Source: a candidate division FCPU426 bacterium | GTDB taxonomy: Bacteria > Oederibacteriota > JAAXVQ01 > JAUVAV01 | Length of the DNA: 64,000 nucleotides | Assembly (NCBI GenBank): GCA_030637655.1 | Contig: DAOWGI010000027.1 | Span: 40,329 to 104,328 of the forward strand | Direction: 5' to 3' | Shown: positions 1,417 through 44,501 of the stretch, in pieces | How positions within the stretch are numbered: position 1 is the first letter of the stretch | Layout: each line of letters opens with the position of its first letter | The notes under the pieces: model-generated | What the model saw: only the letters and a program-made list of their open reading frames with translations | What the model was told of the DNA's origin: nothing | Databases searched by the model: none | Made by a program: the position numbers and the translations under genes

Positions 1417-1419
1417 GTA

Positions 1420-4114: not shown

Positions 4115-4127
4115 TTTATTCCCTTTC

Positions 4128-5093: not shown

Positions 5094-5117
5094 GTTACTT
5101 CCTTATACTTCTTTTTT

Positions 5118-5331
5118 GTAACTACTCAGGTCTGCAAGGAGCAGGGCGCTTTGGTTTTTTTTCAAGCGTGGCAGCGGTAACTGTGTAGATGTGGTTTAGA
5201 AAAGCATATCCCCCTATTGCCCGTTAGCAGCCTGGACCTTGGTTTTCCGCTTTGCAATGCTTGAAAAAAGACCAAAGTGACCTGCCAGGTGTGAATATTT
5301 GAATACTTTTTTTACCCACCTGGGTAGTTAC
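5118..5331. repeat. Copy 2 of repeat family R1, with TIRs gtaactactcagg / cctgggtagttac
   Basis: Same architecture and length as copy 1. The right terminus contains the pyrC stop codon TAA (5328-5330). Confidence 0.7.
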
Positions 5332-7557: not shown

Positions 7558-7573
7558 GCGCTTGTCCCCCTTT

Positions 7574-8131
7574 TCATTCTTTGCTCCCTGGAGCTTGTAA
7601 CTGTATGACGTCCGGTTCCGGGCCTTCCTGTAATTGCACCACAACTTTTTCACTTCGGGCCGTAGGCAAATTCTTGCCTACAAAATCAGCATGAATTGGC
7701 AACTCACGATGTCCTCGATCCACCATCACCGCCAACTGAATTTGTTGCGGCCGTCCGTAATTATTGAGTTCATCCATGGCAGCTCTAATAGTTCGGCCGG
7801 TAAACAACACGTCATCGACCAGGACCACGCGTTTCGCTTCCAAATCAAAAGGTAAATGTGTGGGTTGCTTACTCGCTTGTCGTTTCGCATTTCTATGCGC
7901 GTCATCGCGATGAAACGTGATATCCAAGGCGCCGACCGGAGGTGTTGTGCCTTCAATGGCACCAATGTGTTTAGCAATACGTTTGGCAATTATATCCCCG
8001 CGTTTTAGAATTCCGATCAAAACCATGTTTTCCACTCCGTGATTGCGTTCACAAATTTCATGCGCAATACGAGACACTGCCCGTCTTATGGTTTCAGCAT
8101 CCATGACTTGCTTGGTTTTTATTTCCGACAT
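7574..8131 (-). CDS. pyrR: Bifunctional pyr operon regulator / uracil phosphoribosyltransferase PyrR
   Basis: PRTase motif VLVDDVLFTGRT. Start ATG 8131 (MSEIKTKQV) preceded by a GGAGGG RBS. First gene of the operon. Confidence 0.85.
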   Translation of the reverse strand: MSEIKTKQVMDAETIRRAVSRIAHEICERNHGVENMVLIGILKRGDIIAKRIAKHIGAIEGTTPPVGALDITFHRDDAHRNAKRQASKQPTHLPFDLEAKRVVLVDDVLFTGRTIRAAMDELNNYGRPQQIQLAVMVDRGHRELPIHADFVGKNLPTARSEKVVVQLQEGPEPDVIQLQAPGSKE

Positions 8132-8145
8132 GGTTTCCCTCCGTT

Positions 8146-8260
8146 GGCCAAAAAAAAACCTCCCCTGTGTCTTGCCAAATGGGAGGTTTTCCAGCTGTAG
8201 CATTAGTCTAAAACAGCACCCTTTCCAGTCTCGCAGAACCAGTTTAAAGGATTGTTTTTT
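8146..8260 (-). promoter_or_regulatory. pyr leader with candidate PyrR-dependent transcription attenuator (terminator hairpin plus U-run directly upstream of pyrR)
   Basis: On the minus strand the hairpin aacctcccatttggcaagacacaggggaggtt (8183-8152) is followed by nine U (8154-8146). Upstream leader contains CUGCGAGACUGGAAAGG, resembling a PyrR binding loop. Confidence 0.45.
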
Positions 8261-8342
8261 CGTTTCTGACAATACCCCGGCTTTGACTTTCTGTCAAGGA
8301 AGATTGCCGGAGAAAATTATCATGTGAGTGAAGCGGGAAAAA

Positions 8343-9656: not shown

Positions 9657-10766
9657 TTAATATTTATACAACACCATTTTTCGCAATTCTTTGGCTTGAC
9701 CATCTAGTATCACACGATAGAAATAAATACCGCCTGCTAAAGAGTTGGTATTAAAAGCAATGCGATTCAATCCGTGCCGGCAATCCGCAGTAACCAGACC
9801 AACGCGTTCTCCGGCCGGATTATATATAACAATGCGCACCGGACAGTCTTGGTTAACGTATTTATCCTCACTTACTTTTATTAAGAAATAGGTTGGCCTG
9901 CCGATTTTTACCGGATTGGGATAGAAATAAGCCTCCTCGAATTCCTCCCAAGGCCGCTGCGTCCAGGTTGCGGTTACGCGCGGCGTATGGCTGGAGGTGG
10001 GAGATATTGTTGGTGTTAAGGTAACTGTTAGAGTAGCCGATATCGTTGGTGTAATAGTAACGGTTGCCGACGGAGTAAAAGTAGAAGTATTCGTATACGT
10101 AGCTGAATACGTAGCTGTCATAGTTTCAGTTGGGGTGTTGGTATTAGTGCCGGTCCAGGTAGGTGTCATAGTCACTGTGGGCGAATAATACGGTGTTTCT
10201 GTTTCGGTTGGCGTCATTGTTCTTGTCATAGTCGCGGTTTCTGTTTCAGAGGCAGTTGGAGTTGCTGTCTCGGTATTTGTCCAAGTCAGTGTGGCGCTCG
10301 CTGTTTCAGTAAACGTCTTGGTTGGTGTATCCGTCGGTGTGGGACTTGAAGTTATGGTTTCTGTCGCTGTCAGAGAAGGTGTCAGACTTATCGTTATTGT
10401 ATTGCTGGGCGTGTTACTAGGTGTTAATGTTGGACTAATCGTTATGGTCTCGCTCGGTGTACTGGTTGGAATAGAAGTAGGCGTTGGCGTAGGTGTGTTG
10501 GTTGGAATTACAAATAATTGCGCATGCAGAAATCCTGCAAAGTTAATATAATTTGTCGAATACACGCTATCTGCACCGGCCTGACTTATCGCAGTTATGA
10601 TACCATAATTAGTAGACCACGCCAGCTCCCCGCCGCTGTCCTGCACATCATCCACACCAGTGTAATTAGTTGAGGAGAAATTGCTATGCGCCCGAAGGTT
10701 GTGTGTCATGCCAATCAACAAACAGCTCAAGCACAATATTATCTTTATTACACAAGTATCCTTCAT
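9657..10766 (-). CDS. Secreted protein with Thr/Pro-rich linker repeats and a T9SS-type C-terminal sorting domain (TIGR04183-like)
   Basis: Signal peptide. About 180 aa of TPTPT/TETAT low-complexity repeats. C-terminus YFYPNP..VRIVIYNPAGERV..GGIYFYRV..KMVLYK matches the Por secretion CTD pattern. Confidence 0.65.
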   Translation of the reverse strand: MKDTCVIKIILCLSCLLIGMTHNLRAHSNFSSTNYTGVDDVQDSGGELAWSTNYGIITAISQAGADSVYSTNYINFAGFLHAQLFVIPTNTPTPTPTSIPTSTPSETITISPTLTPSNTPSNTITISLTPSLTATETITSSPTPTDTPTKTFTETASATLTWTNTETATPTASETETATMTRTMTPTETETPYYSPTVTMTPTWTGTNTNTPTETMTATYSATYTNTSTFTPSATVTITPTISATLTVTLTPTISPTSSHTPRVTATWTQRPWEEFEEAYFYPNPVKIGRPTYFLIKVSEDKYVNQDCPVRIVIYNPAGERVGLVTADCRHGLNRIAFNTNSLAGGIYFYRVILDGQAKELRKMVLYKY

Positions 10767-10787
10767 GCCACCTTCCCCAATCTTGAA

Positions 10788-12056
10788 TTAAAACGCCGGA
10801 TACAGTGCACCTGTACTGTCTTGATTGCAAATACCGCTTGGACCACCATAGCCCGGCACAATGGCAGCTCCGGTTATAGTATCCACATAATCAAAAGCCG
10901 GATTCCCGTTATAGGTCACGTTAAAGCTTACGCGCCCCATACCGGGCGGACCACCGCCTGCAACACCAATACCGATCGATGACCCGGGTCCACCTGAACT
11001 TTGATATAACACAGAATTTTCCAAAATAAAAATGTGCGGCGCTTGAGTGCCGCCGTCGGTAATACCGGAACAACCCATCGCGCTGGCTGTTCTCAGGTCA
11101 ACAACGCAATTTTCAACTCTGCAATTTAAACTACCCCCCGCCAATATTCCAGTAACTTGTGCGCCTGCCGCCGCATAGAAGATTGTCGTGTCCACAATAT
11201 CCGCCCCTGTTGAGCCGCTAATATCAATGGCAGGCGCATTGGAATCTGAAACATATTCTATCTTACATTCCCGCACATACGGATAACTTATTCCTGATGC
11301 TATTACTACCGGATTTCCTGAACTGGTTATCATTAACGATTCCAAGACTGATCCGTCTGCCAACGCGATCCGCCCGCTTCCCAAAGCCAACTCGGTTGCA
11401 TTCCAACCTTGCCCGCGCACGGTCACCCAAGCTGGTACAAAAACTATTCCACCGCCACCAAATGTTCCGGGTTCACTATAACGGCCGGCTTTTACCTCAA
11501 TTACCCATTGTGTGCTAATACTAGGCGCCGGGGCAAGTGCAGTGGTAAAAGCACCCTGCCCCAGGAGCATGTCAATGGCGCCACTGACCGTACATGTATC
11601 ACCGCCATCGTGCGCCACAGTCAAAACCTGTTGGTATACCACTTTCCTGGCTGCCATGGCATAGGCGGCATTGGAAAGCAAATGTTGGGGTGCCATAGTC
11701 TCCCACGACGTTGTGGTAGGATGGTATACTTCAATTTCCAAATAATATGGTTCCCGAAAAGTCTCAGCAATCATTACCGGCGAACTGACAGACTCGCCCA
11801 ATACGACATTAAAAATACCATTAATTATGGCAACACTGTTGTGGGTTTCAACCCAATTTAAGGCTGTGCCGCCGGCATCATACAGCCGGAAGCGAAGATT
11901 CCTGGTTCCATTGATCGGAGTTTTCGTGGCGGAGTCGATCAAATATCCCTGATAATTCATTTTCTTGGAAATTTGAATCGTAGCCGTAGCTGAGAGAGTA
12001 AAGGCCAACAGACATACCAGGGCAAGTATTAGTGTGTTCAGTTGTTTCTTAAACAT
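10788..12056 (-). CDS. Secreted right-handed beta-helix (pectate-lyase-like) repeat protein
   Basis: Signal peptide. Gly/Ser/Ala-rich segments with NCxV-type parallel beta-helix repeats. Function unknown. Confidence 0.45.
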   Translation of the reverse strand: MFKKQLNTLILALVCLLAFTLSATATIQISKKMNYQGYLIDSATKTPINGTRNLRFRLYDAGGTALNWVETHNSVAIINGIFNVVLGESVSSPVMIAETFREPYYLEIEVYHPTTTSWETMAPQHLLSNAAYAMAARKVVYQQVLTVAHDGGDTCTVSGAIDMLLGQGAFTTALAPAPSISTQWVIEVKAGRYSEPGTFGGGGIVFVPAWVTVRGQGWNATELALGSGRIALADGSVLESLMITSSGNPVVIASGISYPYVRECKIEYVSDSNAPAIDISGSTGADIVDTTIFYAAAGAQVTGILAGGSLNCRVENCVVDLRTASAMGCSGITDGGTQAPHIFILENSVLYQSSGGPGSSIGIGVAGGGPPGMGRVSFNVTYNGNPAFDYVDTITGAAIVPGYGGPSGICNQDSTGALYPAF

Positions 12057-12224
12057 TTACTTATCCTCCTCAGGAATAATAACAAATATGTAAATTATAA
12101 ACCCATTGACAAAAGATGCAATCTTTTTTCCATTTCGTTTGTAATATATCAGTGAAGTGCTGTGTTTTGTCAAATAACCCGGAAACATACGGTCTGCTAA
12201 TTTATTTTTTAGGTTAAGTAGCGG

Positions 12225-14318
12225 TTATTGGTTTAATGATTTTTTTAGGTAGTTCAAGGTGCCGCCGGCCAGTATGATTTCTAATTGCCGGGCGGAAAGT
12301 TTGCAATCCATTTCCCATTCAGCGCCTGTGGTCTTGTTTTTCACCAATACCGGCTTACCGGTTATCAGACGAATCTTCAGGCCCGGCAAACTCAATTCAT
12401 GTCCTGGTTCAATCTTGCTGTAGTCTTTAGGATCAATAAAACACAGCGGTAATATTCCGAAATTAATTAAATTGGCAAAATGAATACGAGCAAAGGATTT
12501 TGTCAACACAGCCCGAACTCCCAAATACCGGGGCGCGAGCGCTGCGTGTTCGCGAGACGATCCTTGGCCATAGTTTTCTCCCCCCACCACATAGCCGCCC
12601 TGCAGGGACTTAGCCCGAACGGAAAATCCGGCATCTATTCCGGAAAACACAAAGGCTGAGATGGCGGTAATATTGGAACGTAAGGGCAGTATTTTGGCTC
12701 CTGCGGGCATGATATCATCAGTGGTTATGTTGTCTCCGAATTTGGCCAGCACTTGACCGTTGTCCTCATCCGGCAGTTCGTTAAAATGCGGCAAGGCTTG
12801 AATGTTGGGACCGCGCACGACATCAACCTGCTTACCCTTGGCCGAGGGTTTGAGCATTAGGCTGTCTGAGATCTCCGCGCGTTTGGGAAAGGCAAACTTT
12901 TTTATACTCTTTATTTGCCTGGGGTCCGCGACTTCTCCCAACAAAGCAGCGGTAGCTGCGGTTTCCGGCGAAACCAAGTAGATTTCTGCGTCAGCTGTTC
13001 CGGAACGTCCTTTGAAGTTCCGGTTAAAGGTCCGCAAACTCACTGCTTTAGTGCCGGGTGCCTGTCCCATACCTATGCAGGCACCACACGCCGGTTCCAG
13101 CACGCGTGCGCCCGCGGCCAGCAAGGAAGCCAACGCTCCGTTCTTGGCCAGGGCAGTGAGTACTTGTTGTGATCCGGGATTGATAACCAAGGAGACAGTT
13201 GGATGCACCTGCTTCCCTGCCAGCATTCCGGCTACAGTAATTAAATCCTGCAACGAAGAATTGGTGCATGAGCCAATCGCTACTTGCTGAGGTTTCAAGC
13301 CCTTGAGTTCCCGCACCGGTACTACAGCATCCGGCGAATGCGGTTTGGCAACTAAAGGTTCTACTTTGGAAAGATCAAGGGTAATTTCTCCACCAGTATA
13401 CGCAGCGCCGGGATCTGCAGCCAGCGGTGTGTAATCTTTTATTCGGCCTTGGTAATGCAAAAATGCTTTGGTCACTTCATCCGACGGAAACACGCTGGTG
13501 GTTGCCCCGGTTTCCGCTCCCATATTGGTAATGGTTGCTCTTTCCGGAATGGTCAAGGTTTTTACGCCGGGCCCGGCATATTCCAATATTTTTCCCACGC
13601 CGCCTTTTACCGAAATCCGGCGCAGCACTTCCAGAATAACGTCCTTGGCAGAAACGTTTTTTTTCAACTTACCAATAAGCTTGATTTTAATAATTTCAGG
13701 AAAAGTTAAATAAAAAGGCGCACCACCCATGGCTGCCGCCACATCCAATCCACCCGCACCAATCGCAATCATGCCTAATCCTCCACCGGTGGGTGTATGC
13801 GAGTCTGAACCCAATAAGGTTGCCCCGGGTTTGCCAAATCGTTCCAAATGCAATTGGTGACAAATACCGTTGCCCGGACGCGAAAACAAGGCCCCGTATT
13901 TTTTTGCCATGCTCTGCAGGAAAGCATGGTCATCCGCGTTTTCAAAACCGGTCTGCAGCGTATTGTGATCCACATAGGAAACCGACAATTGAGTGCACAC
14001 GCGCGCACATCCCAGGGCCTCAAACTGGAGCCACGCCATGGTGCCCGTAGCATCTTGGGTTAGGGTCTGGTCTATCCGCATTGCCATGGGTTGTCCGGGC
14101 GTACAAACTCCTTCCCCACAATGCGCAGCCAATATTTTTTCCACAACCGTCTTAGGCTTGCTTTTTTCCACAACTTGTTTGGCTATATTTTGCGGATGAA
14201 TATCAACTTTCTTTTTTGCGTTTTCGGCGGTTTTGGTTCTGTTTTTCGTTGTAATTATTTTTTTTGTCTGGCGTTTCATCCGACTATTCCTTTCGATAAG
14301 CCTGTGGGCCCTGTTCAA
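12225..14318 (-). CDS. acn: Aconitate hydratase (aconitase family, fused catalytic and swivel domains)
   Basis: 697 aa. Fe-S ligand cysteines (GSCTNS, CGACIG). C-terminal swivel domain. Lys-rich N-terminal extension, so the exact start is uncertain. Part of the TCA gene cluster. Confidence 0.75.
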   Translation of the reverse strand: MNRAHRLIERNSRMKRQTKKIITTKNRTKTAENAKKKVDIHPQNIAKQVVEKSKPKTVVEKILAAHCGEGVCTPGQPMAMRIDQTLTQDATGTMAWLQFEALGCARVCTQLSVSYVDHNTLQTGFENADDHAFLQSMAKKYGALFSRPGNGICHQLHLERFGKPGATLLGSDSHTPTGGGLGMIAIGAGGLDVAAAMGGAPFYLTFPEIIKIKLIGKLKKNVSAKDVILEVLRRISVKGGVGKILEYAGPGVKTLTIPERATITNMGAETGATTSVFPSDEVTKAFLHYQGRIKDYTPLAADPGAAYTGGEITLDLSKVEPLVAKPHSPDAVVPVRELKGLKPQQVAIGSCTNSSLQDLITVAGMLAGKQVHPTVSLVINPGSQQVLTALAKNGALASLLAAGARVLEPACGACIGMGQAPGTKAVSLRTFNRNFKGRSGTADAEIYLVSPETAATAALLGEVADPRQIKSIKKFAFPKRAEISDSLMLKPSAKGKQVDVVRGPNIQALPHFNELPDEDNGQVLAKFGDNITTDDIMPAGAKILPLRSNITAISAFVFSGIDAGFSVRAKSLQGGYVVGGENYGQGSSREHAALAPRYLGVRAVLTKSFARIHFANLINFGILPLCFIDPKDYSKIEPGHELSLPGLKIRLITGKPVLVKNKTTGAEWEMDCKLSARQLEIILAGGTLNYLKKSLNQ

Positions 14319-14838
14319 ACAGATTCCCGCCTTTTAAGTCTATTGCCACTACCGCCGGAAAATTCTCTACTTTTAAACTATAGATTGCTTCCGGTCCCAG
14401 TTCCTCATAGGCAACAACCGCAGCGCCATGGACTTTTGCGCCGTAAAACGCTCCTGCGCCGCCGGCCGCAGAAAGATAGATCACTCCCCGGCGTTGGAAA
14501 TCAGCTACTGTGGTTTTTGACAATGGTCCTTTGCCCATGACTGCCACAACTCCCGCATCCAGGATGGCCGGCAGAAACGGTTCCATACGCCGGCTGGTGG
14601 TGGGGCCGGCTGAACCTACCGGTTCTCCCGGTGCCGGAGGTGTGGGGCCGACAAAATATATAAGTTGTTCTTTCAAATCAATGGGCGGTTGTTTTCCTTC
14701 TGTGACCAGGGCATGAATTCGTTTCAAAGCCTCATCGCGCGCTGTATACAAAGAACCGGTAAGATTAACCCATTCTCCGATTTTTATATCCTGTAATGCT
14801 TTTTTATCCAACGGCAGTTGCAACCATACTCCGCTCAT
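14284..14838 (-). CDS. fumB: Class I fumarate hydratase, beta (C-terminal domain) subunit
   Basis: Fe-S hydro-lyase beta-type sequence. Start ATG 14838 overlaps the alpha-subunit TGA (ATGA). GGAGGTG RBS. Confidence 0.8.
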   Translation of the reverse strand: MSGVWLQLPLDKKALQDIKIGEWVNLTGSLYTARDEALKRIHALVTEGKQPPIDLKEQLIYFVGPTPPAPGEPVGSAGPTTSRRMEPFLPAILDAGVVAVMGKGPLSKTTVADFQRRGVIYLSAAGGAGAFYGAKVHGAAVVAYEELGPEAIYSLKVENFPAVVAIDLKGGNLFEQGPQAYRKE

Positions 14839-15677
14839 AGTTTCACCTCCGCCAAACGATGACTGTGACATTCAAAGTTGACCGCCACCGGCATGGAAAC
14901 TATATGACAAGGCGCTGTTTCAATGGCCACTGACAGCGCTGTCGTGGATCCGCCCCAGCCTTGCGGCCCTACACCTAAAGTATTAATTTTTTCCAGAATA
15001 ATTTTTTCCAATTCCGCCGTTTCAACATCCGAGGATGCCTGACCAATTGGCCGCAGTAGAGCTTTCTTGGCCAACCAGGGGGCTGTATCAAAACTGCCGC
15101 CCACGCCAATGCCTAAGATTAAGGGCGGGCATGAGGCAGCGCCGTTTTCTCGGACGGCATTTACAACAAAATCTTGAACTCCCGTGTCACCGGCCGAGGG
15201 AAGCAGCATAGCAGATACGCTGGCATTCTCGCTTCCTCCGCCTTTGGCCATTACGTAAATTTTACAACCCTTGCCCGGAACAATTTGATAGTGCACTACC
15301 GCGGGGGTATTATCGCCGGTGTTGACACGCTTAAACGGATGTACGGATATGGAATGACGCAAACGCCCTTCCTCTGTGGCCTGACGCACACCGGCTTGTA
15401 ACGCTGCTTCCAGGTCACCGCCAATCACGTTTACTTCTTGACCCATTTCCACAAACAGAATGGTCATGCCGGTGTCCTGGCAAAGCGGATGTACTCCGGC
15501 TGCGGCCATTTTAGCATTTTCCAGCAACAACTTAATCGCCTGCCGGCCCAGCGGGGAAGCTTCGGTCTCGCCGGCTTGTTGCAACGCCGCTTTTAAGTCC
15601 GGTCGAATGTGATAATGAATGTTTTTTATGGCATTGACTATTGCAGTCTGGATTTCTCGAACATGGATCTTCCGCAT
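14835..15677 (-). CDS. fumA: Class I fumarate hydratase, alpha (N-terminal domain) subunit
   Basis: Fe-S hydro-lyase alpha-type sequence (CQDTGM). Start taken at MRKIHVREI (ATG 15677) behind a GGGAGGGAG RBS. Confidence 0.8.
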   Translation of the reverse strand: MRKIHVREIQTAIVNAIKNIHYHIRPDLKAALQQAGETEASPLGRQAIKLLLENAKMAAAGVHPLCQDTGMTILFVEMGQEVNVIGGDLEAALQAGVRQATEEGRLRHSISVHPFKRVNTGDNTPAVVHYQIVPGKGCKIYVMAKGGGSENASVSAMLLPSAGDTGVQDFVVNAVRENGAASCPPLILGIGVGGSFDTAPWLAKKALLRPIGQASSDVETAELEKIILEKINTLGVGPQGWGGSTTALSVAIETAPCHIVSMPVAVNFECHSHRLAEVKL

Positions 15678-15729
15678 CTTTTCTCCCTCCCGGTATTTAC
15701 CCATCCCGGCATCGCGGCCGACGGCTTGC

Positions 15730-16669
15730 CTAATTTAACCATTCGTCCACTTGACGACATAATGGTTGTGTCACTCCGGCAGACTTGGTTAATGCTTCTT
15801 TGTCTTGTGCTTCGAGTTGAATTTCCACCACCCGTTCAACACCTTGGCAACCTATGATAACCGGCACACCCAACACAATGTCTGCAAAGCCATATTCGCC
15901 CTGCAGTAAGGTGGCGCAAGGCAACAGCGCTTTCTCGTCATTCAATACTGCCGCGACCATCCGCACGGCAGCTGCGGCCGGCGCATAATAAGCGCTTCCG
16001 GTCTTTAGTAACTTGACAATCTCGCCGCCACCGGTACGGGTACGTTGGGCTATTTTCTCTAATTGTTCCAGAGACATTAATTCAGTTATCGGAGCGCCGG
16101 CCACACGGGTTAAACTGACACACGGTACCATCTCATCGCCATGTCCGCCCAAAACCATGGCCTCAATCACGTGTTGGGACACCTGGAGTGCTTCTGACAA
16201 AAAATACCGATAGCGCGCGGAATCCAATATTCCGGCCATACCAAAGACGCGCTCTTTGGGACAGTTCGCGGTTTTTAAAGCCGTATACGTCATGACATCC
16301 AAGGGATTGGTAACTACGATAATGATGGCCTGGGGCGAGGCCGAGGCAGCGTGACCAACCACAGCCTGGATAATGGCAAAATTTGTTTTAAACAAATCAT
16401 CCCTGCTCATCCCCGGTTTACGAGGTGACCCGGAGGTCACCACAATAATATCTGAATCTATGGTCTCTTCATAGTTTTGAGTGCCCACAACTCTGCCTTG
16501 GTATCCCAGGATGGGGCCGGACTGATTCATATCCAGCGCCTTGCCTTGGGCCAGTCCTTCGGCAATATCGACTAGTACCACGTTACCTAAATTTTGTGCC
16601 AATACCTGCCGGGCAACCTCTGCCCCGACGTTTCCCGCGCCAATTATCGTGATTTTTTTGCGTGCCATG
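15730..16669 (-). CDS. mdh: Malate dehydrogenase (LDH-like MDH family)
   Basis: Rossmann motif IIGAGNVGA. Substrate-specificity Arg in SPRKPGMSRDDL indicates MDH rather than LDH. Start taken at MARKK (ATG 16669, AAGGAGGA RBS). Confidence 0.85.
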
Positions 16670-16729
16670 GTATCCTCCTTGGCCGGCGATACTTCTGTTT
16701 TGGTAATAACTGCATGGTCACTCCACGGT

Positions 16730-16987
16730 CTAATGATGGTGGGAATGAACATTTGAAGAGTGCTCTGTTTGCTGCTGTGTGAGTTCAGCTTGGATTTCCG
16801 CTACAATCAACTCTAGATTTTCCAAGCGCATTTCCATATTAAACAGTGTCTCTTGAACATCCTGCTGCAAATTATTCAAGTTCTCTTCCAACCCCTTAAA
16901 CCGGGCTTGGATTGCTTTGAGAAGATATTCCGTGGTCTTGCTTTTTTTGTTCATCCCTTGTTTTGGTTTGGCTGTTTTCTTTTTCAT
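16730..16987 (-). CDS. Hypothetical small coiled-coil protein with a His-rich C-terminus
   Basis: ORF only; sits between icd and mdh in the same orientation. No recognisable domain. Confidence 0.3.
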   Translation of the reverse strand: MKKKTAKPKQGMNKKSKTTEYLLKAIQARFKGLEENLNNLQQDVQETLFNMEMRLENLELIVAEIQAELTQQQTEHSSNVHSHHH

Positions 16988-17122
16988 GGCAAGAACTTCC
17001 TTTGTTGAACTTTATATGAGGTGAAAGCGCGTTTTCTCTTTCGTTTAAATAGGCCTGAGTATCGTTTGAATTATATCCCGGCAACAGAATCAGCCTGTGG
17101 CCGGGACGCTGATCTTTTTTCG

Positions 17123-18367
17123 CTAAGCTAAATTCTCAATAATCTTCTGAGCAAAAACACTGCATTTTACTTCGCAAGCCCCGTCCAATTGACGGGCCAA
17201 ATCGTAGGTTACAACTTTACTCAAAATGGTTTTTTCCAAAGCCGCTTTAATCGCTTGGGCCGCTTCGGTCCAACCCAAGTGCTCCAGCAGCATAACGCCT
17301 GAGAGTATTAATGATCCTGGATTCACTTTGTCCTGACCAGCATACTTTGGCGCTGTCCCATGCGTGGCTTCAAACAAGGCTACTCCATCTGCCAGGTTGG
17401 CGCCTGGGGCCATACCCAGACCACCTACTTGGGCGGCACAGGCATCTGAGAGATAATCCCCGTTGAGGTTTGGAGTGGCAATCACCGAGTATTCATCCGG
17501 ACGTAATAACACTTGTTGAAACATGGCGTCGGCAATCCGGTCTTTAATCAGGATTTTTCCTTCCGGCATTTTGCCGGCATACTTTTCCCATAAATCCTTC
17601 TCACTAATAGTCTCTTCCGCAAATTCCAGAGCAGCCACCTCATAACCCCAGTCACGAAAAGCACCTTCGGTAAATTTCATGATGTTGCCTTTGTGCACCA
17701 AGGTCACATCAGGGCATTGGTGTTCAATCGCATAACGAATGGCAGCGCGCACGATACGATGTGTGTTTTTCCGGGTCATCGGTTTGATGCCGATTCCTGC
17801 TTCTTCGCTCACCGGTTTACCCAATTCATGCGTGATAAAACCCGCCAGTTTTTTTGCTTCTTCGCTGCCGGACGGCCATTCAATCCCGGCATAGACATCC
17901 TCCGTATTTTCGCGAAAAATCACTACCTTCAGTTTCTCCGGATGTTTGACCGGAGCAGGCGTGCCTCCATAATATCGCACCGGACGAACGCAAGCATACA
18001 AATCCAATAATTGGCGCAAACTTACATTTAAGGAACGAAAAGCTCCTCCCACCGGCGTGGTCAACGGCCCCTTGATAGCTACGCGGTATTTCCGGATGGC
18101 CTCCAGGGTTTCGTCCGGCAAGGCCGAAACTCCGGCGTTTACTGCTTTTTCACCGCATAAAATTTCCATCCATTTGATTTTTTTTCGGCCGTTATAGCTT
18201 TTAGCCGTTGCCGCGTCCAGCACTTGTTGGGTGGCTGCCCAAATATCCGGACCAATGCCATCTCCCTCAATAAAGGGAATAATCGGTTTGTCCGGAACCT
18301 GCAGCGAATTTTCTTTCCAGCCAATTATCTGACCGCCTGGTGGCTCCTCATAATTTAACTTCCGCAT
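17123..18367 (-). CDS. icd: Isocitrate dehydrogenase (NADP-dependent, homodimeric type)
   Basis: 414 aa. [15 protein letters not shown]-terminal motif and overall IDH similarity. Confidence 0.85.
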
Positions 18368-18370
18368 ACC

Positions 18371-19762
18371 TTAACCTCTTTCATGATGCGCGACGCCGAC
18401 CCATTCGGAAAAGTGAATGCGTGCCTGCTCCCACATTTCTTCATCCGAAATACCTGTGACACGGCCGTCTTCATACTCTTTATCCACCCATTCTTTGATG
18501 GCAGTAACGCCGGGATCTTTTTTCTCAATCTTGAATTTTTCCGGAATTTTCAAACGGGCATTGATCCAATAGGCAATACCAGCCGCCCCGGATTTGTCCA
18601 TGATCCCAATATCCACCGGACGATTCAGCACTTTTTCCGTATCAAAAATATTGTATATTTCATGATCTTTCATCAAACCATCAGCATGGATGCCTGCTTT
18701 GGTTACATTAAAATTGGCTCCCACCAACGGCTGATTGGCCGGCACTTTGTAATTCATCTCTTTTTCAAAGTATTCAGCCACTTCGGTGATCACCGAAGTA
18801 TCCATCTCCGCCATATCGCCGCGCAGTCCGATGTATTCGATCAGCAAGGCTTCGATCGCTGTGTTGCCGGTTCGTTCGCCAATGCCCAACAAGGTTCCAT
18901 TGACTGCTGAACACCCGTACATCCACGCGGCTACTGAATTGGTTAAAGCACGATAAAAATCATTATGACCATGCCATTCCAAAAGTTCGGAAGGTACTCC
19001 GGCGTATTTAACTAAACCATGAATAATTCCATTCACATTTCTGGGAAGCATGACGCCCGGCACACTCACACCATAGCCTAAGGTATCACAGGCCCTAATT
19101 TTAACCGGGATACCGGATTCGCGGGATAAACGCATCAACTCCTGGGCAAAAGGAACTACAAATCCATAAAAATCAGCCCGGGTGATGTCTTCAAAATGAC
19201 AGCGTGGAATAACTCCTATTTCCAAAGCGCTGCGCACAATCTCCAAATAGCCATCCAAGGCCTGTCGCCTGGTTTTTTTCAGTTTGTTGAAAATATGATA
19301 ATCAGAAGCAGAGGTAAGAATTCCGGTCTCTTTCAGCCCGAGCTCTTTTACCAGCTTTAGATCCTCTTTTTTGGCACGAATCCAACCGGTCACTTCCGGG
19401 AATTCATGGCCGCGCTCCATACATTTATTCACAGCTTCTTTATCTTTGTCCGTATACAAGAAAAACTCGCTCTGACGAATAATGCCATTGGGACCGGACA
19501 TTTTGTGCATCAAATCGAATAATTTGACGATCTGATCCACAGTAAAAGGAGGCATGGCTTGCTGGCCATCCCGAAAAGTGGTATCTGTGATCCAGATGTC
19601 TTCAGCCGGCGTCAAGGGTGATACCCGGTGATTGAAGCACATCAAAGGCGGCATTTCATACGAATAGATATCCCTAAACAGGTTTGGCTCCTGAACTTCC
19701 TGGAGATCATAGCAATATTCTTCCCGCATCAAGGTTCGGCGGTGTTTATCAAATTTTATCAT
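18371..19762 (-). CDS. DRE-TIM metallolyase of the homocitrate / 2-isopropylmalate synthase family; candidate Re-citrate synthase
   Basis: 463 aa. TDTTFRDGQQ substrate-binding motif. First gene of a co-directional cluster with icd, mdh, fumarase and aconitase, and no Si-citrate synthase in the window. Re-citrate synthases of Clostridium kluyveri and Dehalococcoides belong to this family. Confidence 0.55.
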   Translation of the reverse strand: MIKFDKHRRTLMREEYCYDLQEVQEPNLFRDIYSYEMPPLMCFNHRVSPLTPAEDIWITDTTFRDGQQAMPPFTVDQIVKLFDLMHKMSGPNGIIRQSEFFLYTDKDKEAVNKCMERGHEFPEVTGWIRAKKEDLKLVKELGLKETGILTSASDYHIFNKLKKTRRQALDGYLEIVRSALEIGVIPRCHFEDITRADFYGFVVPFAQELMRLSRESGIPVKIRACDTLGYGVSVPGVMLPRNVNGIIHGLVKYAGVPSELLEWHGHNDFYRALTNSVAAWMYGCSAVNGTLLGIGERTGNTAIEALLIEYIGLRGDMAEMDTSVITEVAEYFEKEMNYKVPANQPLVGANFNVTKAGIHADGLMKDHEIYNIFDTEKVLNRPVDIGIMDKSGAAGIAYWINARLKIPEKFKIEKKDPGVTAIKEWVDKEYEDGRVTGISDEEMWEQARIHFSEWVGVAHHERG

Positions 19763-19857
19763 ACTCTCCCCTCCCTAATTAAATAAATAACCCCCAGTTC
19801 CCCGGGGGAGTAACAATATACGAGAGGCCATGATGATTGTCAACCTAGGAAAGATGC

Positions 19858-19890
19858 TTTTTGCAACATGTCAGTGAACTAATGGAAAGA
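19858..19890. repeat. Solo terminal fragment of the MITE family (caacatgtcagtgaactaatggaaagaa)
   Basis: Reverse complement of the family-P right end (cattagttcactgacatgttac). Downstream sequence diverges. Confidence 0.4.
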
Positions 19891-20058
19891 ATATTAGATT
19901 CGCCCCTACGGCATCCGGGGCATTCACGGGCGATTTCGCGATTCGTCATCGCCCACTTTCATAGGGGCGATCCTTGTGATCGCCCTCACATCACAGATGA
20001 TTACATGCTTTGCCCCTTCGATATCGTTTGTGATTTTTCTTTCATTCCTTTTTTGACA

Positions 20059-20607
20059 CTACCTGGATTTATATTCCTGTTTTGTAAACAAACCATTGAA
20101 AATCAAGTATATTATTGCCAAAGCAGACAGTGCCAGTAAAAACCACTTTGTTGCTGATGCAATTGATGCCAACAATAAAAGATTGGCATCAGGAATCCAA
20201 CCCGCAGAGAGCATTATAATATGTAAGCTGTTTTCAATGTAATCAAAGGGGATTGCCAATATCGGCAGACTGCAAAGCAAAAAGTGAGTATTAGTCAGTA
20301 TAGCGCCTTTTCGCAGGGCTAAAAAAGCTAAAACTCCGGCTAAAAACAGACCATAGGTTGCTGCATATATAAAATCCATCCAAATATTTTGCAAATACGA
20401 TTCAATTCCATCAGAACCCCAAATGGCTATTATCTTTAATGCTCTGGTTACTTTAAAGGACAATTGTAATTCCGGGAGGTATTTGCTCACTTGTGGCAAT
20501 TGACTGAACTGCATGGTACAGAACATGCCTATCATGGCAAGTCCGGAAACAAGAATAATTGGGAGGCGGGAAATTTTTTTATATATATATTGAAGAAACT
20601 GGTACAT
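20059..20607 (-). CDS. Hypothetical integral membrane protein
   Basis: 182 aa with about 5 predicted TM helices. No recognised motif. Confidence 0.45.
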   Translation of the reverse strand: MYQFLQYIYKKISRLPIILVSGLAMIGMFCTMQFSQLPQVSKYLPELQLSFKVTRALKIIAIWGSDGIESYLQNIWMDFIYAATYGLFLAGVLAFLALRKGAILTNTHFLLCSLPILAIPFDYIENSLHIIMLSAGWIPDANLLLLASIASATKWFLLALSALAIIYLIFNGLFTKQEYKSR

Positions 20608-20660
20608 ATTTCCCCCCTAAAATATGTGATCAGGCTGAAAATCCAAATCTTTGGTGATTG

Positions 20661-21443
20661 CTACTCATCTTCCCAAATCTCAGAAGATCGTACCCAACCT
20701 TTATAACCCTCTTGCGCTAACCCGATCGCTTTCCACTCTTTTTCATAACCTAATACCAGGACCTCGCGTCCTTCGGGTACGGTAAATCCAACCTGATTCT
20801 CTTCGCCTGGTCCATTGCGTGCTTCAGCTTGATTCACGACTATAACCCCCCAGCGCACATTACGCTCTTTTACTATACGCAGGCAGGCCCAAGTCGCCAG
20901 CAGCAAAAAAACAACGCCAATTATACTTCCGGTCCATCGCCAAAAAAATCCTTTGCCGCGCTGCCAAATAAACATTGCTATACTGCTACAAAAAATAATA
21001 TATGTAACCAGTGCCAAGAGTGCCAAGGTCTGCCCGGAAAACCGCTGCATAAGCGCTTGGAAAAGTTTGGTCAGAACACCGGTTTTATCTTCCGGTCGTG
21101 GTACCATGCTCCTGGCGTACTTTAAATTATACTGGATATCCGCATCGCCAGGTGCCCGTTTTTGTGCTTGACGATAATAAGCAATCGCTTTTCCAATATG
21201 TCCGTATTTAAATTCCGTGTTACCTAAATTATAATACAATTGAGAACTTTCCAAACCCTGTTTTTTCAACTCCAGATATTTCTTAAGGGCTTGAGTATAT
21301 TCCCCTTGATCATACGCTATTCTGGCTTCTTCCGCTTTTTGCTCAAAAACACCCTGTACTTCCTGCGCCCGGCTCCAGGAGGTCATGTTTACTATAACGA
21401 TAAGAAGGAAAAAAACTCTTTTCATGCGCTTGCTCCTTGCCAA
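20661..21443 (-). CDS. BatE-like protein (signal peptide, TPR repeats, TM segments, C-terminal SH3b-like domain)
   Basis: Domain order and position at the 3' end of the Bat operon match BatE of Bacteroides-type aerotolerance operons. Confidence 0.5.
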   Translation of the reverse strand: MARSKRMKRVFFLLIVIVNMTSWSRAQEVQGVFEQKAEEARIAYDQGEYTQALKKYLELKKQGLESSQLYYNLGNTEFKYGHIGKAIAYYRQAQKRAPGDADIQYNLKYARSMVPRPEDKTGVLTKLFQALMQRFSGQTLALLALVTYIIFCSSIAMFIWQRGKGFFWRWTGSIIGVVFLLLATWACLRIVKERNVRWGVIVVNQAEARNGPGEENQVGFTVPEGREVLVLGYEKEWKAIGLAQEGYKGWVRSSEIWEDE

Positions 21444-21467
21444 ACAGTCATTACCTGTTTGGCAGCT

Positions 21468-23351
21468 CTATTTACTTAAAATCCGGCCCAATTGCGTTAA
21501 TAATTCTATAGCCTTTTGTTCATCCGCGGCCATGGCTGCGGATTCGCGTTCACTGGGCGCAAACCGGGCAAAATCGGTTTCATCAAACAATTCCGACAGT
21601 TCGGTTATTAGTTGTTCCTTGGCTCCGCGCTTATGCAATTGCCACAGAATTTCTCTCTGGGTAATACCACTGCGGGAGGCTCCCATCTCATCAGCCAGGT
21701 AACCTATTAAAGCTTGCGCCAAGGCTGCATAGAATTCCTTGGCATCGTGCCGCAAACGCGCGCTGCTGGCCTGTTTTAAGGCCCTTTGCGCGCTGCGACC
21801 GGCAGTTATTTTTCGGGCATACCGGGGATCTGCTGCCAAGCGATCGCGCTGTTTTTGCCAGGCCCGGAAACCCAATAATCCCAGCGGAGGAAATAAAAAA
21901 CCCGCGATCCAAAATAGCGGAGGCAAAGGCGGTGCTTCGGGATGCAGAGGAATTTCGGTTTTCAGATAACGGATATCCTGGGCAATAATTTTAACACCCG
22001 CTCCTGTAGTCTGCGGTAGAGTGCCAACTACCGGAACCAGCGTAGGCACTTCCCCGGGCAATACTTTCAAATGCAGACTGGGCACTTTGACCTGTTCAAA
22101 TTTTTTCCGGCGCGGATTGAAATAACTGTACGTTATCGGTGGAATGGATAATGTTCCAGTGACTTCCGGGCGCAGCAAGGTGCGATATATCTTCACCCCT
22201 TGAATAGTATCCGCTTTTTTTTGTACTTCAGACGAGGAAATCGTCTCATACACTTTAAATCCGGTAAGCGGCGGCAACCGCGGTTTGCCCACGGATTTCA
22301 CATTACCTTGACCAAAAATACGCACTTCTAAGGTAACCGCCTCTCCCACCTTGGCTTCTGTGCGGTCCAGGCCGGCTGACAGGGACCACTTGCCCACGGT
22401 TCCGGTAAAATCCCGGGGCCGTTTTGTGGCTGGTACTGGTTGTACCTGCATGGTAATCGGTTTGGATTGCAGGTTAACCCGTTGTCCGGTAGAAAAAAAG
22501 TTTCTAAAAAAACTATCGGAAAAAGGATCCCGTATCTTGCGCTGAAAATCCTGGATATGCACAGTCAGCTCTGCCGGTCCAATAGTTAGCTTCCCAGATG
22601 TGGTCGGAAACAAGACCTGGCGAATCTCAATTACTTTATATTCCCTTCCCTCAATATGCGTCATGTATTCCCGTTGGGGTGGTAAATCTTCCGCCCAAAA
22701 ACCACTGGTGTCCGGTGCTGTATACTGAGGTTGTGATAATGCCGGGATGCGTGAGTACCAGCGAAATGTCAGAATCACCGGTTCATTGACATACACCGAA
22801 CGTCTATCCACGGTTGTGGTCACAAAAATCGCTTTGTTTTCTTTTTGCGCCGCATCGCCAGGTGGTCCTGCTTGAGGTCGCGAGCGCGCCTGAGGCTGTG
22901 AGCGCTGTACACTTCCGGGACGACCGGGTGGGGTGAAGCCTTGCGCTGCCCCGGTAACAGTCATCTGTATGGGCTGGGTGGAATAGGTCTTGCCTTTGTA
23001 CTCAATACTAATCGGTCCAAGCGTAAATTGACCGGCACGCTTGGGAACCATGACATACGTAAATTGCAGTGTTGACGACACTTGGCCGTTAATAAAAGAA
23101 AAATTCGAGGAACGTCCTCCCCCGTACACTTGAAAATCCGGTAAATCCGGAAGCTGGGGCACGTTGCGTAGATTCGCTTTACCCTCGATAGCTACAACCA
23201 GTTGTATATGCCGGCCAACACTTGCTTGCTTGGGCTTTACCACCGCTTTGATGGAAATATCCTGCGCGGATGTCAAGAGCGGCTGATTAAACAGCAACAC
23301 AGCCAGTCCTATACTAATTTTCAATAGAGATTCCCAAAACAAATGCCTCAT
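21468..23351 (-). CDS. BatD-like oxygen-tolerance protein
   Basis: 627 aa. Signal peptide, large periplasmic domain, two TM segments, cytoplasmic tail. Lies between batB and batE-like. Confidence 0.55.
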   Translation of the reverse strand: MRHLFWESLLKISIGLAVLLFNQPLLTSAQDISIKAVVKPKQASVGRHIQLVVAIEGKANLRNVPQLPDLPDFQVYGGGRSSNFSFINGQVSSTLQFTYVMVPKRAGQFTLGPISIEYKGKTYSTQPIQMTVTGAAQGFTPPGRPGSVQRSQPQARSRPQAGPPGDAAQKENKAIFVTTTVDRRSVYVNEPVILTFRWYSRIPALSQPQYTAPDTSGFWAEDLPPQREYMTHIEGREYKVIEIRQVLFPTTSGKLTIGPAELTVHIQDFQRKIRDPFSDSFFRNFFSTGQRVNLQSKPITMQVQPVPATKRPRDFTGTVGKWSLSAGLDRTEAKVGEAVTLEVRIFGQGNVKSVGKPRLPPLTGFKVYETISSSEVQKKADTIQGVKIYRTLLRPEVTGTLSIPPITYSYFNPRRKKFEQVKVPSLHLKVLPGEVPTLVPVVGTLPQTTGAGVKIIAQDIRYLKTEIPLHPEAPPLPPLFWIAGFLFPPLGLLGFRAWQKQRDRLAADPRYARKITAGRSAQRALKQASSARLRHDAKEFYAALAQALIGYLADEMGASRSGITQREILWQLHKRGAKEQLITELSELFDETDFARFAPSERESAAMAADEQKAIELLTQLGRILSK

Positions 23352-23378
23352 CGTATCAAGTGCTCGCTTCTGGTTATA

Positions 23379-25157
23379 TTACCAAGTGGCTTTTCTTCGA
23401 CCCTCTGGTTGTTGCTGTCGCTTCTGCATGCGTTTTCGGTGCGCGTCTTTTTCCGCCTCGCGCACCGCGTCGAGTATTGTTTCCGCTTCTTCCGGCCGCA
23501 TCTCTCCCGGCCGGGGTTTTTTTGGCTCTTTCTCCTCCGGTGTGTTCTGCTCTTGTCCGGAATCCGCTTTTTGCTCGCCTTTATCATCCGCTTGGTCCGG
23601 CTCTGATTCGTCTTTGGACTTGCGCGGATCCTGATCCTTTAGATCCTGCTCTTTTTTCCGCCCACCAGCTGATTGCTGCTGCTGATTTTTCTGATCCTGC
23701 TTATCATCTTTGTTCTGTTGCTCTTGTTGCGACGACGGATTTTTCAGCATTTGAATCGTCTGAGCTAAATTATAAATCGTATCCTCATCCTGGGGAGCTA
23801 ATTTTAAAGCTTCCCGGTAATGTTTGGCTGCTTCCTGATATTTTTGGGAGGCAAAATACGTATTTCCCAGGTTGTACAAAATTTCAGCGCGCATTTTTTC
23901 ATGCTTACTCTTTAATGCCCGTTGATACGATTTTTCCGCCTCGTCAAAGCGTTCTTGCTGATGCAGGCTGTTTCCAATATTATAGTTCACCTTGGGCTCA
24001 TCCGGACTTTTAATTTGCGCCTCCCGGTAGGCTTCCAGCGCTTCTTCGTATTTGCCTTGTTTATATTTGCGATTTCCTTTATTAACCTCCTCGGCCGTGC
24101 CGGCCCAAGCTAATTGCGGTAATAATAGCATAACCAGAAATATAGTTAACCAGGAACCTTTCCGTTTTGGTAACCAAAAAGCAAAAAGCAATAATAATAA
24201 CGCGGGCAAAAGTACATATTGATAGCGATTCTCGTTTGCTCCGTATTGTCCGCCGGTCACCTCCCGTTTTCGCATTTGCGCTATAAGATCCACAATTTGT
24301 TTGGCTTCTAAGCTGCCGTGATGCGCCGGTAAGTATACACCCCCTGTCATATCCGTGATTTTTTTTAAAGTTGCTTCATCCAATCGGGACATCACAGTTT
24401 TTCCATTTTTATCTTTAACATAATCGACGATCTCACCTTTGGCATTACGAATCGGTATGGGCTCCCCGCCGGGAGATCCGAAACCAATACTGAGTATTTT
24501 CACTCCCGCGGCTTTAGCTTCTTGGGCAGCTTCTATGACTTTCGAATCATGATCCTCTCCATCGGTTAGCAAAACCAAAACACGGTAGCCTTCTGATCCC
24601 TCAGGAAAAATTTCCAAGCCGGCCCTAATGGCGGTCCCCAATTCGGTCCCAGCCACAGACACGGATTGGGGAGATAAATAGTTTAAAAACATCTTGGCCG
24701 CAACATAATCCGTAGTCAGAGGACAGGCCACCTGAGCGGAGCCGGCAAAAGCAATGATTCCGACCCGATCCCCGCCCAAATGATCAATAAACGCTCCCAG
24801 TTCTTGCTGCGCGCGTTCCAGGCGATTGGGACGAACATCTTCAGCCAACATGGATTGTGAGACATCCAAGATAATAATGACATCCACACCTTGCCGTAGC
24901 ACTTCCACCATTTTCACCCCATATTGTGGTCCTGCCAATGATAACCCGAGCAGAAATAACCCCGCCAAGAGTGCCAGCCCTTTTAGAACCCGGCGAGTAT
25001 TGGACAGGTCTTGTATCAATTGGTCCACCAAAGACTGATTTCCAAAAACCCGCAGATCGCGTTGGCGTTGCCAGCGCGCCCACAGGGCAATGATTACCAG
25101 AGCGGGCAGCAGAATTCCCAACACCAGGTAAAAAATAACCGGGTAAACAAATTGCAT
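23379..25157 (-). CDS. BatB-like protein (VWA domain plus TPR repeats, with a K/E/Q-rich acidic tail)
   Basis: VWA MIDAS motif (DVSQSM). TPR repeats. Start taken at MQFVYPV (ATG 25157, GAGAGGA RBS), downstream of MITE copy A. Confidence 0.7.
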   Translation of the reverse strand: MQFVYPVIFYLVLGILLPALVIIALWARWQRQRDLRVFGNQSLVDQLIQDLSNTRRVLKGLALLAGLFLLGLSLAGPQYGVKMVEVLRQGVDVIIILDVSQSMLAEDVRPNRLERAQQELGAFIDHLGGDRVGIIAFAGSAQVACPLTTDYVAAKMFLNYLSPQSVSVAGTELGTAIRAGLEIFPEGSEGYRVLVLLTDGEDHDSKVIEAAQEAKAAGVKILSIGFGSPGGEPIPIRNAKGEIVDYVKDKNGKTVMSRLDEATLKKITDMTGGVYLPAHHGSLEAKQIVDLIAQMRKREVTGGQYGANENRYQYVLLPALLLLLFAFWLPKRKGSWLTIFLVMLLLPQLAWAGTAEEVNKGNRKYKQGKYEEALEAYREAQIKSPDEPKVNYNIGNSLHQQERFDEAEKSYQRALKSKHEKMRAEILYNLGNTYFASQKYQEAAKHYREALKLAPQDEDTIYNLAQTIQMLKNPSSQQEQQNKDDKQDQKNQQQQSAGGRKKEQDLKDQDPRKSKDESEPDQADDKGEQKADSGQEQNTPEEKEPKKPRPGEMRPEEAETILDAVREAEKDAHRKRMQKRQQQPEGRRKATW

Positions 25158-25213
25158 ACTTAAATCATCCTCTCTGAGAATAGAACAAAAGAGCAATAGA
25201 AAAAGCTCAATTG

Positions 25214-25439
25214 CGGTAACATGTCAGTCATGCGTTTTTTTGTTTATCATCCATGAATGCAACCCCACCCTGTCATCCCCGAATGCTCTTATCGGGGATA
25301 TGGTTTAAAAAACCAGATTCCTGCCGAATGCGTCCCTATATATCTTTTCCGGTCGGGGCCGATTAAACCCTCGGGAATGACAACCTTTGTTAACCGCAAT
25401 TCGCTGACATGTTACTACTAAATGCTCAAGCTCCTAGGG
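25214..25439. mobile_element. MITE-like repeat, family 3 copy A, with TIRs ggtaacatgtcag / ctgacatgttac plus a flank ctaaatgctcaagctcctagg
   Basis: The internal 160 bp (gtcatccccgaatgc..tatcggggata..ccgattaaaccctcgggaatgac) is near-identical to 27557-27710 and, in reverse orientation, to 29780-29895. The batA stop codon lies in the right flank. Confidence 0.65.
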
Positions 25440-27448: not shown

Positions 27449-27505
27449 GTTCTTATCTTCATTTCGTTCCTGGTTTCTTCGCTTCAATCTCCGGGCTGAG
27501 TACTT

Positions 27506-28617: not shown

Positions 28618-28677
28618 ATCGTTATTACATTCCTTCGCAGATTGTCGTGTAGGGGCGAGGTTACCTCGCCCCTACGA

Positions 28678-31254: not shown

Positions 31255-31364
31255 TTTTTACACCATGTCCGTTTTGAAGCTTTTGAGGAGATATTCCTGT
31301 TTTCTACATTTATAAATATAGCCTCTTAGGCACTTACAAATGAAATTCTTTCAAAAATGGAAAG

Positions 31365-44495: not shown

Positions 44496-44501
44496 GACCT
44501 C

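Follow-up and report, generated by a model that had tools for sequence, protein, structure and literature searches.

A tricarboxylic acid cycle gene cluster headed by a probable Clostridium kluyveri-type Re-citrate synthase in a lineage near candidate division FCPU426

The stretch analyzed here (64,000 nt of contig DAOWGI010000027.1, hereafter the window) comes from an uncultured lineage near candidate division FCPU426 and carries seven intact, co-directional open reading frames (ORFs) on the minus strand, running from position 19762 down to 12225. The first-pass annotation, a model's reading of this DNA, had described a tightly packed tricarboxylic acid (TCA) cycle cluster headed by a candidate Re-citrate synthase (Re-CS), and the packing of seven genes on one strand is borne out, all ORFs being intact within these limits. 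The first gene (18371-19762) encodes a 463-aa HMGL-like/DRE-TIM protein that is very probably a Re-CS of the Clostridium kluyveri type. It is followed by icd (17123-18367, 414 aa), encoding an NADP-dependent isocitrate dehydrogenase (IDH) of the homodimeric prokaryotic type (TIGR00183, 646.4 bits with the cut-off at 567.3), a small lysine-rich ORF (16730-16987, 85 aa), and mdh (15730-16668, 312 aa), encoding a malate dehydrogenase (MDH) of the LDH-like family (TIGR01763, 401.7 bits against 351.85). The alpha (14835-15677, 280 aa; NF004885, 355.2 against 276; Pfam Fumerase, 1.5e-101) and beta subunits (14284-14838, 184 aa; TIGR00723, 164.4 against 145.15; Pfam Fumerase_C) of a class I (Fe-S) fumarate hydratase come next, and the cluster ends with acn (12225-14279, 684 aa), encoding an aconitate hydratase of the ~640-aa "PRK07229" type (NF005558, 926 bits against 612).

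In gene order, the spacers measure 3, 135, 61, 52, -4, and 4 nt, and a Shine-Dalgarno-like purine run lies ahead of each start codon. The icd gene sits 3 nt past the Re-CS gene, the fumarase beta start overlaps the alpha stop by 4 nt (ATGA), and acn begins 4 nt after the beta gene. The short gaps described earlier are therefore found at most junctions (-4 to 135 nt), but the interval from icd to mdh amounts to 454 nt and contains a hairpin as well as the small ORF. Likewise, both genes of the pair initially labeled fumA-fumB are present, but they encode the alpha and beta subunits of one class I fumarase rather than two paralogs.

Several gene starts differ from those of the longest ORFs. The listed ORFs for mdh, both fumarase subunits, and aconitase begin upstream of the likely true starts (mdh, for instance, was listed as 340 aa). 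The shorter starts are backed by gene calls on four public contigs with an identical Re-CS gene, one of which calls a 697-aa aconitase, and the mdh start at 16668 matches the calls on these contigs. The mdh product carries an arginine in PRKPGMSR, which we take to be the mark of an MDH rather than a lactate dehydrogenase. Because the curated NCBIfam equivalog cut-offs are cleared, the neighbors of the first gene are, as judged by these profile matches, a true IDH and a true aconitase and not the homoisocitrate or isopropylmalate paralogs of the lysine and leucine pathways.

The 463-aa protein contains the sequence ITDTTFRDGQQ at residues 58-68, and the TDTTFRDGQQ motif of the isopropylmalate synthase (IPMS)/homocitrate synthase (HCS) family, on which the first-pass annotation had relied, is indeed present. 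HMGL-like is its only Pfam match (3.4e-29); neither the Citrate_synt domain of Si-citrate synthase (GltA) nor the LeuA_dimer regulatory domain was found by Pfam, in agreement with the earlier view that the enzyme is not of the Si type. The best NCBIfam matches are the NifV, LEU1_arch, and LeuA models (E ~1e-42), but the protein stays below the cut-offs for homocitrate synthases (NifV/LysS; 145.5 against 462.9 bits for TIGR02660 and 103.1 against 413.55 for TIGR02146), LEU1_arch (143.4 against 484.75), LeuA-type enzymes (138.7 against 517 and 108.2 against 598.7), and CimA (76.1 against 950 for NF042433 and 61.3 against 450 for TIGR00977). Since these scores fall far under the curated cut-offs, the profile evidence places the protein in the DRE-TIM superfamily but in none of the LeuA, NifV, and CimA families. 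The conserved D and HxH of CimA, LeuA, and NifV have their counterparts in residues D60, H264, and H266 of the alignment; from structures of citramalate synthase (CMS) and IPMS, we take them to be the metal ligands. An AlphaFold2 model, which served for confirmation of the fold alone and not for active-site inference, has HCS, MAM synthase, CMS, and IPMS as its top Foldseek matches, and the predicted DRE-TIM barrel fold is not in doubt.

Re-citrate synthases have reportedly been described from C. kluyveri by Li et al. in 2007 (CKL_0973) and from Syntrophus aciditrophicus by Kim et al. in 2013 (SYN_02536). In BLASTP comparisons, the 463-aa protein is 55.4% identical to CKL_0973 over 428 aa (E 5e-167) and 55.1% identical to SYN_02536 over 459 aa (E 2e-180), with identities of 62.4% to the Clostridium thermocellum homolog and 53.5% to Clostridium acetobutylicum CAC0970; the values for NifV, LeuA, and CimA are ~26-29%. 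The reference sequences were transcribed from Table S1 of PMC12016533, a PDF digitized by optical character recognition (OCR) with the loss of some letters, and the measured identities are therefore probably slight underestimates.

Two unrelated Re-CS clades exist, and the second type catalyzes the same reaction with the same stereochemistry as the C. kluyveri type (PMC12016533). Type-II enzymes, such as those of Dehalococcoides mccartyi (CAI83711), C. difficile (AksA), and Heliomicrobium (HM1_2993), share the superfamily of the window protein, but they form a separate clade nearer NifV and LeuA and are 27-29% identical to it (~27-29.5% over these sequences and that of Thermoanaerobacter). We computed a neighbor-joining tree (437 columns, Kimura distances) from the window protein, 14 database homologs, and 11 references. 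In this tree, the window protein sits among CKL_0973, SYN_02536, CAC0970, and the C. thermocellum protein, in a clade that is separated from the seven outgroups in 300/300 bootstraps. Thus, the phylogeny that had been proposed as a check groups the protein with characterized Re-citrate synthases and not with LeuA, NifV, or CimA. Of the types named in advance, that of C. kluyveri, which the Syntrophus enzyme shares, fits the protein (55% identity), but the Dehalococcoides type does not, as the protein is only 28-29.5% identical to it and lies outside that group in the tree.

Analyzing the alignment, we further noted about 50 positions with a residue that is at least 90% conserved in the Re-CS clade and shared by the window protein but found in none of the seven outgroups. 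Among the clade-specific residues are F63 and Q67 (TDTTFRDGQQ, where others read T-L-R-D-G-E-Q), W263 and G265 (EWHGHND), and T354 and A356 (FNVT-K-AGIHADG, where LeuA reads FAHESGIH). The window protein also has the two insertions of the clade, "GPNGI" and seven residues after CDTLGYG, and its conserved N-terminal extension of ~55 residues (EPNL.RDI..Y). It therefore resembles CKL_0973 and SYN_02536 in its ~55% identity, clade membership, N-terminal extension, two insertions, and the motifs RDGQQ, FNVT.AGIHADG, and EWHGHND, and it has no LeuA regulatory domain either. SYN_02536 (622 aa) differs in a ~170-aa C-terminal extension, which the 463-aa window protein does not have; moreover, CKL_0973 and SYN_02536 have been characterized biochemically, whereas the activity of the window protein is predicted. 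With LeuA, NifV, and CimA it shares the DRE-TIM fold, the D...HxH ligands, and presumably the acetyl-CoA Claisen condensation; these enzymes differ in using another 2-oxo acid substrate and in their diverged motifs, and LeuA in its regulatory domain.

Since every sequence-level comparison that we made points the same way, we consider it very probable that the 463-aa protein is a C. kluyveri-type Re-citrate synthase (EC 2.3.3.3), with activity and stereochemistry predicted from its characterized relatives. Homologs of this type have been given the same role elsewhere: the Kuenenia protein, 55.1% identical to CKL_0973 and adjoining succinate-CoA ligase, is regarded as a Re-CS (PMC8027424), and the C. 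thermocellum protein, 61% identical to CKL_0973, is encoded beside aconitase, with 13C-labelling that supports Re-type activity (PMC6115520). The absence of gltA from the genome, which had been suggested as a further check, is not a valid criterion for refutation, because both citrate synthase types occur together in C. thermocellum and in C. kluyveri (PMC6115520).

The full gene order is kept at five related loci, L091, L092, L005, L094, and L007, in which the Re-CS is 92, 89, 88, 80, and 79% identical to that of the window, respectively; the 89% homolog stems from a metagenome-assembled genome (MAG) of candidate division FCPU426, a candidate phylum in the NCBI list. The upstream neighbors of the cluster in L005 are entirely different from those in the window. 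As the order persists at 79-92% Re-CS identity while this flank differs, the comparison argues that the arrangement is not a matter of chance. In L007, a cyclophilin gene directly follows the aconitase gene.

Beyond this lineage, a scan of species-representative genomes returned at least 80 loci, with 57-67% identity to the window Re-CS among the matches listed. They come from Endomicrobiales, Elusimicrobia, Firestonebacteria, anammox Planctomycetes, Armatimonadetes, Nitrospirae, Syntrophales, and many Clostridia. Aconitase of the window type (56-59% identical) lies 1.4-2.1 kb downstream of the Re-CS start at 22 of the 80 listed loci, an Icd-family gene occurs within 4.3 kb of Re-CS at 26, and 35 link Re-CS to aconitase and/or icd. 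Genes for mdh and fumarase are found near Re-CS at a single listed locus, in the Firestonebacteria MAG L014, where they are divergently oriented. One Endomicrobiales homolog has glutamate synthase genes within ~1.4 kb, encoded on the opposite strand. Searching 1.84 billion representatives brought in further diversity but no functional information. The wider-spread arrangements are thus Re-CS-aconitase-icd and Re-CS-icd, and the module of Re-CS with aconitase and IDH is already known; the addition of mdh and fumarase in one co-directional block appears, among the matches listed, to be specific to the FCPU426-like lineage.

The clusters of C. thermocellum and C. acetobutylicum (in the latter CAC0970-0972, which we take to be the clostridial Re-CS gene cluster) resemble that of the window in linking Re-CS to the same short aconitase type and an Icd-family dehydrogenase. 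They differ in order, the clostridial one being Re-CS-acn-icd and that of the window Re-CS-icd-...-acn. In addition, the window Icd is an NADP type related to E. coli Icd, the clostridial neighbors are only 32-40% identical to the window Icd, and the window cluster includes mdh and two fumarase genes, unlike the clostridial ones.

A promoter-like sequence, TTGACA-17 nt-TATATT (19815..19843, minus strand; 11/12 consensus match), lies ~50 nt upstream of the Re-CS start. Four of six relatives have TTGACA-17-TATA(T/G)T at the corresponding place ahead of Re-CS, and L091, L092, and L005 also share a block around the hexamers, the remaining spacer having diverged. This footprinting provides reasonable evidence for a promoter at 19815-19843. 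Just upstream of the Re-CS promoter, five relatives have a conserved, hydrophobic 55-56 aa ORF (L005, 9724-9891; L007, 9657-9827; L091, 8638-8808; L092, 2843-3010; L094, 5847-6014). In the window, the homologous stretch (~19870-20040) no longer has a start codon and gives a poor alignment, and the gene appears degraded.

Between the promoter and the Re-CS start, a G+C-rich hairpin occupies 19791-19808 (minus strand), and a similar element of different sequence occurs in L005, which at first suggested covariation. We considered a leader attenuator, formed by this hairpin and a U-run (19808-19791), and rejected it: none is present in L091, L092, or L007, and the z-score against shuffled sequences is 0.03. 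The hairpin is probably not a conserved regulator and may be a terminator of read-through from upstream or an element capping the 5' end of the mRNA. Scanned against Rfam with E values up to 1 allowed, the region 11000-21000 showed no riboswitch or leader.

Farther downstream, a stem-loop (17075..17107, minus strand) lies 15 nt past the icd stop, with a folding energy of -21.4 kcal/mol and z = -3.05, without a U-run. All five relatives have a stem-loop of differing sequence after icd (-14 to -32 kcal/mol), accompanied by a U-run in L005 and L092. The element is possibly a weak terminator or an RNA-stabilizing structure, and this hairpin after icd suggests that the cluster comprises more than one transcription unit. 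We regard the Re-CS gene and icd as one unit; the genes past the hairpin, namely the small ORF and mdh-fum-acn, may belong to further units or be expressed by read-through. The junctions of 3, -4, and 4 nt imply that Re-CS and icd, fumarase alpha and beta, and beta and acn are co-transcribed in pairs, probably with translational coupling. The 3-nt spacer leaves no room for a promoter between the Re-CS gene and icd; such a promoter is what the first-pass annotation had named as evidence against a joint cluster.

By analogy with characterized homologs, the pathway would run as follows. With D60, H264, and H266 holding a divalent metal, Re-CS would bind oxaloacetate at this metal, enolize acetyl-CoA, condense the enolate with oxaloacetate on the Re face, and release citrate. 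Aconitase would convert citrate to isocitrate, and the NADP-dependent Icd, made from the same message 3 nt downstream of Re-CS, would yield 2-oxoglutarate for glutamate synthesis. MDH and the two-subunit Fe-S fumarase would connect fumarate, malate, and oxaloacetate, and could either feed oxaloacetate to Re-CS or work reductively, in the direction of fumarate and succinate, as one arm of a split ("horseshoe") TCA pathway like that of anaerobes. We infer the catalysis and stereochemistry of Re-CS, its dependence on metal (Mn2+/Co2+) and sensitivity to oxygen, the direction of flux, and the anaerobic lifestyle; PMC6115520 cites Li et al. (2007) for the oxygen sensitivity of Re-CS. The oxidative branch proposed in the first-pass annotation fits Re-CS, aconitase, and icd as a route to 2-oxoglutarate, but mdh and fumarase lie outside the path from oxaloacetate to 2-oxoglutarate. 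An anaerobic or microaerophilic host is suggested by two enzymes of oxygen-labile types, Re-CS and the class I fumarase, by a dihydroorotate dehydrogenase of class 1B that has an Fe-S subunit, and by a Bat-type operon. Literature on FCPU426 metabolism yielded community surveys only.

MDH and fumarase, not being needed between oxaloacetate and 2-oxoglutarate, also lend some weight to another pathway, in which Re-CS is still the enzyme but the cluster would be the soluble core of a complete TCA cycle, run oxidatively or in reverse (with the synthase cleaving citrate at high CO2), the remaining enzymes being encoded elsewhere. Together, the genes here cover five of the eight classical cycle steps, and the succinate-CoA ligase beside the Kuenenia homolog (PMC8027424) fits as well. 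Among ORFs of at least 150 aa outside the cluster, however, the 64-kb window encodes no 2-oxoglutarate oxidoreductase (OGOR) or dehydrogenase (ODH), sucCD, or sdh/frd, nor a Si-citrate synthase; reversal in the literature covered concerns Si-type synthases only (PMC9324843, T. takaii), and Re-CS is assigned there to an incomplete oxidative branch in anaerobes (PMC8027424, PMC6115520). We therefore regard a complete cycle as unlikely and favor the branch to 2-oxoglutarate.

Several observations weigh against the Re-CS assignment and the cluster as a single operon. No Re-citrate synthase structure is found among the PDB sequence and Foldseek matches of the 463-aa protein, and none appears to have been solved. 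The AlphaFold2 model, built on a 39-sequence alignment, reaches a pLDDT of 68, and its active-site loops stay under 50. Phylogenetic support comes from a simple neighbor-joining tree with only seven outgroup sequences and OCR-derived references, and the hairpin after icd together with the 454-nt gap counts against one operon. The nearest PDB sequence neighbor is Leptospira citramalate synthase (1.3e-21), followed by homocitrate and isopropylmalate synthases, and the exact protein appears at NCBI as MCK5241700.1, "2-isopropylmalate synthase [bacterium]". These neighbors and this name, like the shared superfamily and the NifV, LEU1_arch, and LeuA model matches, would be expected if the protein were a 2-isopropylmalate, citramalate, or homocitrate synthase, joining acetyl-CoA to a 2-oxo acid other than oxaloacetate. 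We hold this to be very unlikely: the scores stay below one third of every curated cut-off (145.5/462.9; 143.4/484.75; 76/950), identity is 26-27% against 55% to characterized Re-CS, the 300/300 bootstraps separate the two groups, LeuA_dimer is missing, the motifs RDGEQ and HESGIH are replaced by RDGQQ and T-K-A-G-I-H, the forms typical of the Re-CS clade, and the neighbors are citrate-pathway enzymes rather than leuBCD. That the seven genes are mere neighbors, expressed separately and adjacent without functional information, is hardly credible, although the 454 nt between icd and mdh, the stable hairpin that all relatives have behind icd, two of them with a U-run, and the unrelated small ORF inserted in that interval would fit, because they are outweighed by the junctions of 3 nt (Re-CS/icd), 4-nt overlap (fumarase alpha/beta), and 4 nt (beta/acn), the order kept at 79-92% identity with a differing upstream flank in L005, and the linkage of Re-CS to aconitase and/or icd in 35 of the 80 listed species.

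The Re-CS assignment bears mainly on annotation, and it opens no new question. The NCBI name "2-isopropylmalate synthase" needs correcting; a 93% homolog is named "citrate (Re)-synthase" in IMG. The wrong name recurs among named homologs from several phyla because NCBIfam holds no model that the Re-CS clade passes. A metabolic reconstruction from the NCBI annotation would wrongly deny citrate formation to this candidate-phylum lineage, and the C. kluyveri-type enzyme is widespread across several phyla. Knowledge of the enzyme family, and of its linkage to aconitase and IDH, dates from 2007-2010; the gene arrangement seen here is specific to this lineage. With five TCA steps gathered around Re-CS, the cluster makes a tidy target for expression studies, and its only unexplained features are the small protein and the basic tail of the aconitase.

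The 85-aa protein (16730-16987, minus strand) is lysine-rich, has heptad-like leucines, and ends in HHH; it has no family match in Pfam or NCBIfam and is probably helical. Homologs occupy this position in L091 and L005 and, in more diverged form, in L094, whereas L092 and L007 have none there; they share the core ...LQQ.(V/I/L)QETL..ME.RLENLEL.VAEIQAEL. The protein is 46% identical to its L005 counterpart, while the flanking enzymes are ~88% identical. In the conserved core, a hand count from the alignment gives 12 synonymous codon differences against 2 non-synonymous ones, and because these are mostly synonymous, they point to a real gene that is fast-evolving yet selected.

The aconitase begins with a strongly basic N-terminal tail of 46 residues (14142-14279, minus strand), 14 of them K/R. 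In four relatives, the tail is sequence-variable, with 9-12 K/R in 23-40 aa, whereas the clostridial aconitase homologs have none and start a few residues ahead of the conserved core. On this comparison the basic tail is lineage-specific, and it may be a disordered segment that serves in nucleic-acid binding or in interaction. That the small protein and the tail (23-46 aa), both additions of this lineage, form a regulatory or organizing layer on the pathway, for example as an RNA-binding "moonlighting" aconitase or a scaffold assembling the enzymes, is an improbable suggestion.

The flanks of the cluster are unrelated to it: the upstream side holds an operon of the MoxR/DUF58/BatA-D type, and the downstream side encodes secreted proteins, a cyclophilin, and enzymes of pyrimidine biosynthesis. 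The upstream operon (20661-29667, minus strand), of the Bacteroides-aerotolerance type, encodes MoxR AAA+, DUF58, BatA, VWA-TPR, and BatD proteins and directly precedes the TCA cluster; it is kept upstream in L007, L091, L092, and L094 but not in L005. Downstream, two unannotated proteins of 422 and 369 aa (9657-12056, minus strand) lie between the aconitase and cyclophilin genes. The 422-aa protein has a hydrophobic, signal-peptide-like N-terminus, and the 369-aa protein has a weak match to a C-terminal sorting domain of the type IX secretion system (T9SS); the pair is absent from L007 and is therefore a lineage-specific insertion. The pyrimidine cluster (98-8272, minus strand) encodes OMP decarboxylase, class 1B dihydroorotate dehydrogenase and its Fe-S/FAD subunit, dihydroorotase, aspartate carbamoyltransferase, and phosphoribosyltransferases, and is interrupted by a PAP2 phosphatase and a polysaccharide deacetylase.

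Elsewhere in the window, two tandem paralogs with SH3b and NlpC/P60 cell-wall hydrolase domains (445 and 487 aa) occupy 29917-32949 (minus strand). The stretch 40708-50798 (minus strand) has a G+C content of 0.37-0.40, against 0.45-0.51 in most of the remaining window. It carries a type I restriction-modification system (hsdR, 41426-44563; hsdS, 45403-46719; hsdM, 46710-49154), inside which a Bro-N domain gene (44502-45344) lies; next to the system are encoded a YgjP-like metallopeptidase and a DUF4062/Fic-like_C protein (49254-50798). This stretch is probably a horizontally acquired defense island.

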